NCBI GenBank assembly: GCA_964585945.1
Contig: CAZPGB010000014.1
Span: 6,912-70,911 of the forward strand
Origin: an uncultured bacterium
GTDB taxonomy: Bacteria; Eisenbacteria; RBG-16-71-46; CAIMUX01; WJJG01
Direction: 5' to 3'
DNA: 64,000 nt
Position numbers and translations under genes: made by a program. Below the pieces are notes generated by a model that made no database searches, was not told where the DNA came from, and saw only the letters and a program-made list of their open reading frames with translations. This document shows, piece by piece, positions 31,741 through 38,522 of the stretch; within the stretch, counting starts at the first letter, position 1, and every line of letters begins with the position of its first letter.

Positions 31741-32616
31741 CTACTTGCCCAGAGACTCGCGGCTGGCGATGATGTCCAGCAGTTCGGCGGTGATGGCCTG
31801 CTGGCGCTGCTGGTTGTGCCGTTTGGTCAGCTCCTCTAGGCGCTCGCCGATGTCCTTTTCGGCCACCTGCATGGAGGCCAATCGGCTGGCCTGTTCGCTG
31901 GCCAACGATTCGGCCAGGGCGCGGAAGACCACCACGAAGAGATACTGCTGGATCAGGCGTCCGGTGAGCTTGCCCCTGTCCATGCGATACATGGGCAGCG
32001 AGCGGGACTCCCAGGGCCGTTGGGCGAGCTCCTGCAGCCATGTCATGTCGAGTGGCCACAGGGGAACTCTTTCAGGTTCGTAGGATGCTCCCGAGCGCCG
32101 GCGGTTGTGGAAGAGCAGAATGCGACCCGCGCCGTTTTCCCGGCGCCACTTCTCCGCCTGCACCAGGATTCGGGCTACCGAATCGGTGATGCCTGTCGCC
32201 GAATGGGGCACCTCCAACCGGCGCTCTGTCTCGAGCCCGGCGTTGTGCAGCCGAGCGGCCACACGCTCGCCGACGGCCAGAACGACCGCCGGACCACTGC
32301 GATCCTGGGTTAGGTGACGCTCCGCGAAGGCGGCGATGTCGTCGTTGAATTGCCCGCACATGCCCTGGTCGGAGCCGACGACGATGGCGGCCACCTGCGA
32401 CCCGGTGGGCTCCAGTTCGCGCGGGCGGCCGGCGTGTGAGTCGCGTAGGACGATCTGGAGCCCCATCTCCACCGTCTCGCGCCAGAGTCCGACGGCGTCC
32501 GCGGCGCGCTCGTACTGACGAATGCTCGCGGCGGCCAGCGCCTTCATGCTCTTGACGACCGACTGCAGGTCCTCGGTGCTCTCCAATCGTCTCTTGAGAG
32601 CGTTGAGCGTCTCCAT
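31741..32616 (-). CDS. atpG: F-type ATP synthase gamma subunit
   Basis: Gamma N- and C-terminal helices (...LKRRLESTEDLQSVVKSMKALAA...; ...ITAELLDIIAS). Confidence 0.9.
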   Translation of the reverse strand: METLNALKRRLESTEDLQSVVKSMKALAAASIRQYERAADAVGLWRETVEMGLQIVLRDSHAGRPRELEPTGSQVAAIVVGSDQGMCGQFNDDIAAFAERHLTQDRSGPAVVLAVGERVAARLHNAGLETERRLEVPHSATGITDSVARILVQAEKWRRENGAGRILLFHNRRRSGASYEPERVPLWPLDMTWLQELAQRPWESRSLPMYRMDRGKLTGRLIQQYLFVVVFRALAESLASEQASRLASMQVAEKDIGERLEELTKRHNQQRQQAITAELLDIIASRESLGK

Positions 32617-32623
32617 GGCCGCC

Positions 32624-34171
32624 TCATCGATCCATCTCGCCGAGGACTCGGCGTGCCTGGTTCAGGACCGCTTCCTGGTCCTCGGAGGCGAAATCCTCTC
32701 CGGCGAGAATGCGCTCGCTCTGATCCTCCAGGCGACGCGGTACTTCGGTCTGAATCTCCTCCACCGCGTCGGCCACGCGCTCGAGCGGCAGGTCGTCGAA
32801 GAGCCCCTGATTGAGCGCCAGCAGAACCGCGATCTGCTCCGGAACGGAGCGAGGGTGGTACTGGGGCTGTTTGAGCACCTCGCGCACGCGTCGTCCACGG
32901 GCCAACGTGCGCTGCGTGTCTTCATCCAAGCGCGCGCCGAACCGGGCGAAGGACTCGAGCTCTTCGAACTGGGAATATGCCAGCCGAAGGTCCCCGGCCA
33001 CGGCCCGGTACGCTTTCAACTGGGTCTTGCCGCCCACGCGCGAGACCGACCGGCCCACATCGACCGCGGGGAGCACCCCGCGGCGCATCAAATCGGGCGA
33101 CAGATAGATCTGCCCGTCGGTGATCGAGATCAGGTTGGTGGGAATGTAGGAGGAGATGTTCTGGGCCTGGGTCTCGATGATCGGCAGGGCCGTGACCGAG
33201 CCTCCGCCCTTCCTGTCGCGCACGTGCGTGGCCCGCTCGAGCAGGCGCGCGTGGATGTAGAAGATGTCCCCGGGGTATGCTTCGCGGGCGGGCGGGCGCC
33301 GCAGCAGGAGAGAGAGCTCCCGGTAGGCGCGCGCGTGGCGCGAGAGGTCGTCGAAGACCACCAGGGCATCTTCACCGCGCTCCATGTAGTACTCGGCCAT
33401 GCAGATGGCTGCATAGGGGGCGATGTACTTGAGGCCCGGCGGCTCCTCCCCTGCCGCGAAGACCACCGTGCAGTGGTCCATGGCATGGTGGGCACGTAGG
33501 TCCGCGACCACGCGCGCCACGGCGGTCGCCCGCAGACCGATGGCGCAGTAGATGCAGCGCACGTTCTTGTCACGTTGATGGATCATCGTATCGACGGCGA
33601 TGGCCGTCTTGCCGGTCTGGCGGTCGCCGAGGATCAGCTCGCGCTGGCCGCGTCCGATGGGGATCAGCGCATCCACGACCCGCAGTCCGGTCTGCAGGGG
33701 GACCGAGACCGGCGCGCGGTCGAGGATGGCCGGGGCATCACGCTCGATGGGCCGACGCTCGTCAGCATCGACCGGCCCGCCATGGTCGAGCGGCCGACCG
33801 GTGGGATCGACCACGCGGCCGAGCAGACCGTCGCCGACGGGGACGTCGACGACGCGGCCCGTGCGCCGCACCGTGCTCCGCGCGCGGATCTGGTCCCACG
33901 TGTCCAACAGAACGACGCCCACCCGGTCGGGACGAAGATTGAGCGCCATCCCGCGCAGGCCGCCCTGGAAGCGAACCAGCTCTTCGGCGCCGACACCGGG
34001 CAGCCCGTCCACATGCGCCACCCCGCGGCCCACGTCACGCACGACGCCGACCTCCTCCACGCGCAGCCGGGGCGGATCGCCTTCCAGGGCTTCTTCCAGC
34101 GAAGCGGCCACGGGCGGCAGCACGCGCTCCAGGGCGCCGCGGTCGGGATTCCTTCGCCCGGCGTCAGCCAT
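32624..34171 (-). CDS. atpA: F-type ATP synthase alpha subunit
   Basis: [11 protein letters not shown] Walker A. Start at the internal ATG with GAGGAG RBS, overlapping atpF by 8 nt. Confidence 0.9.
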
Positions 34172-36317: not shown

Positions 36318-36651
36318 CCGGCTCCTCCTCCCGGTGAATCTCCCGGCGTTCGCGCCGCACCCAGAACCAAGCGTTCAAACAGCCGGCAATGACCCCGATG
36401 ATCAGGAAGGTCAACGTCCAGGAGATGGTGGTGCCCGTCCCGGTGACACGGGAATCCAGCCAGATTCCGACAATGACCCCGATCACCGTGGGGATGGCCA
36501 CAGCCCAACCGACGGTACCGAAGGTGCCCAGACCGAACCAGAGGCTGCGGTGCTTGCGTCGCAGGGCGCGAAGCTTCCGCTCCCGCTTTTCATGCGCTGC
36601 CTTGCGAAGCTGCTGCCCAGGGGTGTCGTTGTGACCCGCTGCGTCAGACAT
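36304..36651 (-). CDS. atpQ: N-ATPase accessory membrane protein AtpQ
   Basis: Small 2-3 TM protein directly after atpC. Start overlaps the atpC stop. Confidence 0.5.
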   Translation of the reverse strand: MSDAAGHNDTPGQQLRKAAHEKRERKLRALRRKHRSLWFGLGTFGTVGWAVAIPTVIGVIVGIWLDSRVTGTGTTISWTLTFLIIGVIAGCLNAWFWVRRERREIHREEEPGDDA

Positions 36652-37042
36652 GTTGTTCGACCTCCAGGAAGCGGCGGACGAAATCCGCCTCCAGCCGGGC
36701 AGTGGCTGCACGAGCGCGCTTCTCGCTCTCGTCGCGAACCAGGAAATGCTCGGTCACGGTGCGCTCCAGATCTTGGAGAGACTCACCCGACACCGCTTCC
36801 CGAACCGCGATCCGCACCTGGTCGCCCTTCTTGACCACCAGGCCTTCATCGACGGCGACCCACAGGGCGTCCCCCTCCGGGGTTCGGTAGGAGACCAAGC
36901 CGGGCGCCTGGAGGGCCACGAAGTCGATGTGCCGGGGCAGGAGCGTGTAGCTGCCTGCGGGCGATTCGGCGCTCACCTTGATCGCCTCCTGCTCAACCAC
37001 GGTCTGCGTCGCGGTCAGGATCTTCAGGCGCATCGTCTCCAT
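36644..37042 (-). CDS. atpC: F-type ATP synthase epsilon subunit
   Basis: [20 protein letters not shown]...[19 protein letters not shown]. Start overlaps the acidic C-terminal tail of atpD. Confidence 0.8.
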
Positions 37043-38522
37043 CGTCTGCCTCCAGCTTGCCTTCCTCCTCCTCTCCGGTGGTCCGGTCATCGTCGGACTT
37101 CTCGGAGTCGTCTTTGGCTCCCCCTACGGGGTCGTCACGCGCCTCGTCGACGGCCCCGATCATGTAGAGCGCCTTCTCGGGCGCATCGCTGAACTCGTCA
37201 CTGAGAATACGCTCGCAGCCCGCCAGAGCCTCGTCGCGGGATACGAGGCGCCCCTTCTGGCCCGTGAACGCCTCGGTCGTGTAGAAGGGCTGCGTCAGGA
37301 AGCGCTCCAACCGTCTGGCGCGGTGCACGGTGCGTTGATCGTCCTGTGAGAGCTCTTCCATCCCCAGCATGGCGATGATGTCCTTGAGCTCCTCGTACTC
37401 GGCCAGGGTCTGCCGAATGCGGCGGGCCACGTCGTAGTGACGCTCGCCGACGATGTGCGGCGATAACATCTTCGACCCCGACCGCAGTGGGTCGATGGCC
37501 GGATAGAGCCCCTGACTGGCCCGGTCACGCGAGAGCACCACGGAAGCCGACAAGTGGCCGAAGGTGTGTACCGCCGCCGGGTCGGTGAAGTCATCCGCCG
37601 GAACATAAACCGCCTGGACCGACGTGATGGCGCCCCCCTGCGTGCTGCAGATCCGCTCCTCCAGCTCGGCCAGCTCGGTGGCCAGGGTCGGCTGGTAGCC
37701 GACGCGCGAGGGAATGGCGCCCATCAATCCCGAGACCTCCGATCCCGACTGGATGAAGCGGAAGATGTTGTCGATCAGCAACAGGACGTCTTGGCGGGCG
37801 TCGTCACGAAAGTACTCGGCCACGGTCAGCGCGCTGTGGCCGACACGGAAACGCGCCCCGGGCTGCTCGTTCATCTGACCGAAGACCAGCACGGCGTTGT
37901 CGAGGACGTCGACCTCCTTCATCTCCCGATAGAGCTCCTCGCCCTCTCGGCACCGTTCGCCGATGCCGCAGAAGATGCTCACGCCCTCGTGCTGCGCGGC
38001 CATGTTGTGGATCAATTCCATGATCAGGACCGTCTTGCCCACGCCGGCCCCGCCGAAGAGACCGGCCTTGCCGCCACGCTCCAGTGGGGAGAGCAGATCG
38101 ATCGCCTTGATGCCCGTCTCGAAGAGCTCGGTGCTGGTGACGCGCTCCGCCAGGGGGACCGGAGAAGAGCGGATAGGTCGTTCGTCAGCGGCAGCCAGCG
38201 CGTCTCCCTTGTCCACCGGTTGACCGAACACGTTCAGGACCCGGCCCAGCAGCTCCTTTCCAACCGGCACGCGCAGCGGTCCGCCGCTGTCCTCCACCTC
38301 GGCGCCCCGGCGCAGACCCGCCGTGGGGGTCAAGGCGATCGTTTGGGCCGTCTGTTCGTCCTCATGGGCCAAGACCTCCAGGACCACGCTGGGTGAGCCG
38401 CGCACCTGCAAGCGTTGGTGCAGCGGAGGCGGTCCCTGCGGAAAGCGCACGGTCACCACGCCCGCTTGCACGCCGGACACCGTGCCGCGCGGGGGAGACG
38501 TCTGAGGCGATTCTCCTTCCAT
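36993..38522 (-). CDS. atpD: F-type ATP synthase beta subunit, with about 45-aa acidic C-terminal extension
   Basis: [15 protein letters not shown] Walker A. DELSEED-like region. Unusual Asp/Glu-rich tail. Confidence 0.9.

Follow-up and report, generated by a model that had tools for sequence, protein, structure and literature searches.

The DNA considered here, called the window throughout, is the whole stretch of 64,000 nucleotides taken from contig CAZPGB010000014.1 of an uncultured bacterium of the Eisenbacteria (GCA_964585945.1), and the system of interest is an operon in it for an N-type rotary ATPase (N-ATPase). Nine tightly packed open reading frames (ORFs) on the minus strand, running from 38522 to 31741, encode beta, epsilon, AtpQ, AtpR, a, c, b, alpha and gamma. 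Gene boundaries were assigned from the starts of model matches, the start codons and Shine-Dalgarno-like motifs. The nine adjacent ORFs and their model matches agree exactly with the coordinates and the order atpD-C-Q-R-B-E-F-A-G given in a preliminary description of this DNA, which was made from the sequence alone. The genes are as follows, with the scores of the matching models:

38522-36993, minus strand: atpD, catalytic beta subunit of the N-type, 509 aa; TIGR03305 (alt_F1F0_F1_bet), 775 bits against a cut-off of 752, residues 13-461
37042-36644, minus strand: atpC, epsilon subunit, 132 aa; TIGR03166, 130.4 bits against a cut-off of 100.1, match from residue 21 of the ORF
36651-36304, minus strand: atpQ, small membrane protein, 115 aa; TIGR02230, 113.3 bits against a cut-off of 46.7, and PF09527, 47.2 bits
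36317-36027, minus strand: atpR, hallmark membrane protein of N-ATPases, 96 aa; PF12966 (AtpR), 57.5 bits against a cut-off of 26
35985-35314, minus strand: atpB, a subunit, 223 aa; TIGR03306 (altF1_A), 316.5 bits against a cut-off of 302.1
35284-35015, minus strand: atpE, c subunit, 89 aa; TIGR03322, 152.1 bits against a cut-off of 130.85
35003-34164, minus strand: atpF, long b subunit, 279 aa; TIGR03321, 249.3 bits against a cut-off of 224.7
34171-32624, minus strand: atpA, alpha subunit of the N-type, 515 aa; TIGR03324, 790.2 bits against a cut-off of 750.5
32616-31741, minus strand: atpG, gamma subunit of the N-type, 291 aa; TIGR03323, 300.9 bits against a cut-off of 282.35

The P-loop of the beta subunit (GGAGVGKT) is intact, and AAGGAG lies 5 nt before the ATG of atpD. 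A Shine-Dalgarno-like motif of the GGAG type is clear just upstream of eight of the nine starts; the remaining one, the GTG of atpF, is preceded by a weak AGGA. Several genes overlap by 8-14 nt (8 nt between the start of atpA and the stop of atpF) and no intergenic gap exceeds 41 nt, so that a delta gene would not fit between them. No Rfam family, tRNA, sigma-70-like promoter or intrinsic terminator was detected around the operon, and the 400 nt upstream of atpD contain nothing beyond a weak 28-nt inverted repeat.

The N-ATPase family, whose first examples came from Methanosarcina barkeri and M. acetivorans, was defined by Dibrova, Galperin and Mulkidjanian (2010; PMC2881411). Its features recur in the window: the gene order, the presence of AtpR, the position of AtpQ between atpC and atpR, the absence of atpH, a long atpF, subunits of the N-type and the motif of the c subunit. 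The canonical arrangement, atpIBEFHAGDC, is not found, as the order starts with atpD-atpC, neither atpH nor atpI (PF03899) is present, and atpQ and atpR stand there instead. Apart from AtpQ and AtpR, all products (seven in number) pass the curated cut-offs of the NCBIfam models for alternate F1F0 ATPases. For beta, alpha, gamma, a, b and c the N-type models also outscore every generic F-type model, the grouping being one by model scores. Epsilon scores higher with the generic model NF004871 (134.7 bits) than with TIGR03166 (130.4 bits), yet falls under the former's own cut-off of 135, and AtpR, which is recognized by PF12966, reaches 44.7 bits on TIGR03165, under the cut-off of 55.5. Contig ends and occasional gene insertions aside, nearly all of 80 related loci keep the order atpDCQRBEFAG.

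Individual residues agree with this assignment. When 64 AtpR sequences are aligned, all of them have Arg51 (64/64) and 56 have Arg82, which agrees with the two conserved membrane arginines described for the AtpR of N-ATPases (PMC2881411); the transmembrane segments of AtpR were judged by eye from hydrophobic stretches. The a subunit carries the essential stator arginine, Arg164, within LAVRLFGN (codon 35496-35494), and RLFGN is kept in 74 homologues. The resemblance to the N-ATPases of Dibrova et al. (2010) extends to a delta-like end of the b subunit and to a glutamate in both helices of c together with ESTxxY. What differs here is that no sign of recent transfer is found and that beta carries an acidic tail of 48 residues whose gene overlaps that of epsilon by 50 nt. 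No solved N-ATPase holoenzyme is found among the sequence matches in the Protein Data Bank (PDB). The operon is a textbook member of a well-catalogued family, of which a 2025 census, ProAD, lists 1807 members in GTDB v202, about half of them predicted to be Na+-coupled (PMC11738941); its sole oddity is the acidic beta tail, with an epsilon overlap of record length.

The preliminary description had stated that delta is missing. This holds for a separate gene, since every ORF in or beside the operon is accounted for, and requires amendment in that the C-terminal domain of the b subunit is delta-like. Pfam OSCP matches b at residues 173-243 with 23.3 bits, just above the cut-off of 22.3. A search of the PDB with the single b sequence returned b subunits only and no match to delta. 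When a profile of 65 N-type b subunits was searched against the same database, it matched the delta subunits of Acinetobacter (7p2y_d, E=1.1e-8, profile positions 165-244 against delta 97-175), Pseudomonas (E=1.1e-7) and Escherichia coli (E=1.1e-5), as well as OSCP chains, and in every case the C-terminal domain of delta alone was matched. The product of atpF is therefore a b subunit joined to the C-terminal half of delta, with the delta-like domain at about residues 165-245. This accords with the account of Dibrova et al. (PMC2881411) and with ProAD's naming of such subunits as "b-delta" (PMC11738941). The mycobacterial b-delta protein (PDB 7JG5 chain d) is comparable in that b is likewise fused to delta-derived sequence, and the N-type b profile matches it in two stretches. 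However, the mycobacterial protein has about 445 aa and contains the whole of delta, whereas the 279 aa of the N-type b subunit include the C-terminal delta domain only: profile positions 165-246 cover delta at about 97-177, and the N-terminal, alpha-binding domain of delta is left unmatched.

Two further features of the small membrane and stator proteins may be recorded here. Short acidic stretches extend past the family models at the end of b (34164-34262, minus strand) and at the end of AtpQ (...REEEPGDDA, 36304-36340, minus strand), and AtpQ begins with a strongly basic stretch (RKAAHEKRERKLRALRRKHR).

The c subunit contains GPALGEG and, further on, MAMIESTAIY, which provide the ligands E30 (35197-35195), E63, S64 and T65 (35098-35090) and Y68 (35083-35081). 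Its residues 7-84 align without gaps to residues 9-86 of the Fusobacterium nucleatum c-ring (PDB 3ZK1; phmmer, E=1.2e-15), with an offset of +2 that places E30, E63, S64, T65 and Y68 on Glu32, Glu65, Ser66, Thr67 and Tyr70. In the F. nucleatum crystal, Na+ is held by Glu32, Glu65, Ser66, the carbonyl of residue 63 and a water on Thr67, and Tyr70 stabilizes Glu65 (PMC3692424). The full set of Na+-coordinating side chains ascribed to this subunit earlier is thus borne out, all five lying on the F. nucleatum positions. The comparison with Ilyobacter tartaricus that had been recommended gives the same result, the alignment to its Na+ c-ring (1YCE) being free of gaps (E=1.3e-14) and no Na+ ligand being lost. 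The ligand of helix 1, which the earlier account did not mention, is Glu and not Gln and completes a two-carboxylate motif. All five ligands are invariant in the three closest relatives. In a set of about 70 N-type c subunits the motif most often reads IESTAIY, with IESIAIY in others. Na+ coupling and Na+ export are a reasonable prediction from these residues.

Two enzymes offer a comparison for such a prediction. The F. nucleatum Na+ synthase (PDB 3ZK1) has the same side chains at the ion site, but is a canonical F-type enzyme with a separate delta and a c11 ring and acts as the main synthase of the cell. The N-ATPase of Aphanothece halophytica, a cyanobacterium, belongs to the same family as the enzyme described here and is the case in which Na+ coupling and a salt-stress role, as proposed here, have experimental support; according to the citation of this work in PMC5376962, it was reported to be Na+-coupled and was tied to salt stress (Soontharapirakkul et al., 2011).

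The window also contains a number of genes connected with ions and osmotic balance, which are listed below:

997-3840, minus strand: P-type cation ATPase
11595-13178, plus strand: protein with six BON domains
26572-30761, minus strand: trehalose genes (HAD/trehalose-phosphatase and GH65 phosphorylase), directly downstream of the operon
44743-45975, plus strand: Na+/H+ exchanger
46005-47180, minus strand: ZIP transporter
47918-49105, plus strand: MscS-like channel

The trehalose genes, the exchanger, the MscS-like channel, the BON protein and the P-type ATPase together fit a role in salt or osmotic stress. Trehalose genes stand beside the operon of the N-ATPase in the window and in all three of its closest relatives, and among 80 unrelated loci there are 5 with such genes no more than 9 kb from the operon (KSB1, Nitrospirota, Planctomycetota and Desulfobacterota). 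Outside the window they occupy the following positions, as trehalose-phosphatase (TPP) with GH65 or as PfkB with TreT:

L001, 17986-21458: trehalose genes
L003, 10590-13640: trehalose genes
L082, 17117-19329: trehalose genes
L085, 16964-19945: trehalose genes
L011, 16925-19128: trehalose genes
L006, 14714-16846: trehalose genes
L045, 2683-3960: trehalose genes
L058, 5277-8873: trehalose genes

The papers in which both N-ATPases and trehalose genes are mentioned apparently leave the linkage unreported. The adjacency in several unrelated phyla provides independent contextual support for a salt-stress role of N-ATPases that has long been assumed and rarely tested.

The surroundings of the operon also bear on its history. 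The GC content of the operon is 0.663, and that of the two flanking 20-kb stretches is 0.642 and 0.657. In the closest relative (L001), whose beta is 78% and whose LigA is 68% identical, the operon is enclosed by the same genes, TAL-MscS-LigA-PolX on one side and OsmC-TPP-GH65 on the other, and a metagenome-assembled genome (MAG) of KSB1 (L003) also has the arrangement PolX-operon-TPP-GH65. In two further relatives (beta 70-72% identical) PfkB and the trehalose synthase TreT come after the operon, and both share with the window many other genes, among them those for baeRF, BON, NAPRTase, Fpg, PD40-Omp85 and ZIP. The best named matches of the window's LigA, at about 60% identity, are from MAGs of Planctomycetota, Brocadiia and Phycisphaerae; exact-protein look-ups of beta and LigA gave no record, and the top hit of a genome scan was 73% identical. 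Because the GC content matches that of the flanks and synteny is kept, the operon is a long-standing resident of the lineage and not a recent lateral arrival. The N-ATPase family as a whole is known as mobile. For this genome, however, the lateral acquisition suggested in the preliminary description finds no support, and recent acquisition was rejected on both the base composition and the synteny with a relative as distant as 68% in LigA.

The interpretation starts from what is observed directly, namely the gene content and order, the family membership, the ligand residues of the c subunit and the anatomy of the beta tail described below. The operon is read as an intact N-type (N1No) rotary ATPase, chromosomally resident, which exports Na+ and takes part in salt or osmotic homeostasis, with a probability of about 70%. 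Its mechanism can be drawn because of the homology to F-type enzymes. The alpha3beta3 head would hydrolyse ATP and thereby turn the shaft of gamma and epsilon together with the c-ring. Each c subunit would bind one Na+ between E63, S64, T65 (via a water) and Y68, with E30 contributed by the neighbouring helix, and would let it go past Arg164 of the a subunit, so that Na+ is pumped out of the cell. A dimer of b would form the stator, in which the delta-like C-terminal domain replaces a separate delta, and AtpQ and AtpR would be accessory proteins of the membrane that probably help to assemble the two-glutamate c-ring. In salt and osmotic homeostasis, the most likely partners of the enzyme are the products of the trehalose, Na+/H+ exchanger, MscS and BON genes nearby. 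The ion specificity, the direction of pumping and the physiological role are predictions from sequence.

Several points weigh against this interpretation. The N-ATPase of Burkholderia pseudomallei, which has a c17 ring, was predicted to be Na+-coupled but was measured to be H+-selective (PMC5376962), and 893 of the 1807 N-ATPases in ProAD are predicted to be H+-coupled (PMC11738941). No second homologue of alpha, beta, gamma, a, b, c or epsilon is found within the 64-kb window. The linkage to trehalose genes is informally judged to lie above expectation, but the enrichment is modest. Finally, the 45 proteins of the window have a median pI of about 6.0 and are not unusually acidic, and thus do not establish a saline habitat.

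The first two of these points also favour an alternative in which the complex is an N-ATPase coupled to protons, like that of B. pseudomallei, and works as an ATP-driven H+ pump for pH homeostasis. The two enzymes are alike in operon architecture and in having a two-carboxylate c subunit, and the two-glutamate B. pseudomallei ring, the one ring of the N-type that has been examined biochemically, was H+-selective despite the prediction of Na+; moreover, Na+-binding c-rings are able to carry H+ when Na+ is low (PMC2881411). The B. pseudomallei site, however, reads E30/E61-T62-M63-x-x-Y66, with Thr-Met where the window has Ser-Thr (PMC5376962), and Ser-Thr after the glutamate is the Na+ signature. 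Since the ligand side chains in the window are also identical to those of the Na+-occupied F. nucleatum crystal site and are invariant in close relatives, proton coupling is considered unlikely.

A further alternative accepts Na+ as the coupling ion and reverses the direction, the complex being mainly a Na+-driven ATP synthase, possibly the main one of the organism, and not an export pump. F-type machinery is reversible in principle, the window contains no other rotary ATPase, and in genus T78 of the Chloroflexota the N-ATPase is the sole rotary ATPase in 18 of 20 genomes (PMC11738941). Against this, the 64-kb window is a small share of the genome, N-ATPases almost always accompany an F- or A-type enzyme, and M. 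acetivorans grew and made ATP unchanged after its N-ATPase had been deleted (PMC2881411). The neighbours, in addition, are osmotic-stress genes and not respiratory genes that build a Na+ gradient, and a primary role in synthesis is distinctly improbable.

With Na+ export as the preferred reading, the operon may serve as a marker, indicating that an uncultured GC-rich bacterium probably handles salt by Na+ export and trehalose synthesis. Beyond annotation its significance is small, N-ATPases having been described since 2010 and 1807 of them being catalogued in GTDB v202.

The one unusual part of the operon is the end of the beta subunit:

37139-36996, minus strand: low-complexity acidic C-terminal tail of beta, residues 462-509, 48 aa with 22 D/E and 7 K/R

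Beta models and solved beta subunits all stop aligning at about residue 461-463. The length of about 45 aa and the overlap with the start of epsilon given in the preliminary description both prove correct: the tail counts 48 aa, and the overlap is 50 nt from the ATG at 37042 (with GGAGG six nt upstream) or 41 nt from a second ATG at 37033, depending on the start chosen. Epsilon homologues begin at the ATG at 37042. An overlap of 50 nt between beta and epsilon is the largest when compared with 80 other operons, most of which have 4 or 11 nt and none of which has more than 29 nt.

The tail consists of two parts of different origin. In the portion that does not overlap epsilon, the GC content by codon position (0.77/0.39/0.77, as compared with 0.70/0.45/0.85 in the core of beta) is coding-like, and GAC and GAG are favoured over GAT and GAA. 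In the overlapping portion, third-position GC in the beta frame falls to 0.43, as it is the frame of epsilon that fixes the letters there. The tail is thus made up of about 32 added acidic, low-complexity residues and about 16 residues read from the start of epsilon in another frame, and the latter would be a mere by-product of that start. No tandem repeat was detected in the tail with TRF and no conserved motif was found. Two explanations of its origin were considered and rejected: expansion of a tandem repeat, given the empty TRF result, and the acidic proteome of a halophile, given the median pI of about 6.0 among the window proteins.

Comparison with 120 database homologues and 80 genomic homologues (counts are given over 201 sequences) places the tail in a wider context. 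In most beta homologues the conserved ...YMIGxIDEAxK is followed by no more than a few residues. At least 12 extra C-terminal residues are present in 50 of the 201 sequences, and in 19 the extension is net acidic by at least 6. The acidic tails are scattered over about a dozen small, separate clades, next to which tail-less sequences often stand as the nearest neighbours, and in several Proteobacteria and Verrucomicrobia the tails are instead rich in Pro, Ala and Lys. Close relatives also diverge, the tail having about 46-48 residues in the window and 19 in L001 at a core identity of 82%. Tail length is correlated with the GC content of the locus (80 loci, L002-L081; Spearman 0.39, p=4e-4): none of the 13 loci below 45% GC has a tail, as against roughly half of those above 55%. 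The question raised earlier, whether the acidic tail is conserved in other N-ATPases, is answered in the negative, as tails are lineage-specific and of varied composition. No comment on variable, disordered C-terminal tails of N-ATPase beta subunits is apparent in the literature.

In one Verrucomicrobiae MAG (L074, 8998-10827) the core of beta, a linker rich in Pro and Lys and a complete epsilon are read as a single ORF, owing either to a true fusion of the genes or to a frameshift in the assembly.

On the simplest reading, the beta tail of the window is a translated, disordered and fast-evolving lineage-specific appendage that is tolerated at a free C-terminus. It is probably of little or no specific function, and is one case of a feature, variable and probably near-neutral, that recurs among the N-type beta subunits of GC-rich genomes. 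A regulatory function in the dozen or so clades with acidic tails is also conceivable, though doubtful to the point of speculation: the tail might act as an electrostatic autoinhibitor or a cation-sensitive latch by docking on basic surfaces, such as the C-terminal helices of epsilon or the polybasic N-terminus of AtpQ. If so, its release at high ionic strength would switch the Na+ pump on under salt stress. The idea that the tail is not made at all, beta really ending at about residue 462 and the rest being a GC-rich open frame or a sequencing or assembly artefact, draws on the chance of about 0.3 (estimated from base composition) of a stop-free run of 48 codons at 65% GC, on the rise of tail length with GC across loci and on the lack of a repeat or conserved motif, but is highly improbable, as no in-frame stop occurs from the conserved end of beta to 36995-36993, so that the ribosome must translate the tail, as about 97 nt of extra DNA with coding-like codon-position GC and a preference for GAC and GAG lie between the conserved end of beta and the start of epsilon, where most operons have none, and as the independent assemblies of the closest relatives contain acidic tails of 19-55 residues and overlaps of 26-32 nt.

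The tailed, appendage-bearing operon is bordered on its two sides by genes that are not shared with the closest relative at these positions:

38925-40880, plus strand: class II (B12-type) ribonucleotide reductase-like gene, on the divergent flank between atpD and polX
31016-31729, plus strand: ORF of 237 residues, convergent on atpG with 11 nt between the stops, with a lipoprotein-like signal (…LVGVAC)

The ribonucleotide reductase gene is missing between atpD and polX in L001, which points to a local insertion or loss, and no cobalamin riboswitch was detected upstream of it. The ORF of 237 residues has no Pfam match, and its position is taken in L001 by an OsmC gene.

Farther away, RpiB and transaldolase domains are combined in one ORF (50832-52475, plus strand), and a plain transaldolase is found at the matching position in L001. 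A gene for baeRF, an archaeo-eukaryotic release-factor-like protein, is present in the window (4151-5338, plus strand), in L082 (6152-7324) and in L085 (1-999). Its recurrence together with BON, NAPRTase, Fpg and PD40-Omp85 indicates a chromosomal neighbourhood that is conserved but rearranged.

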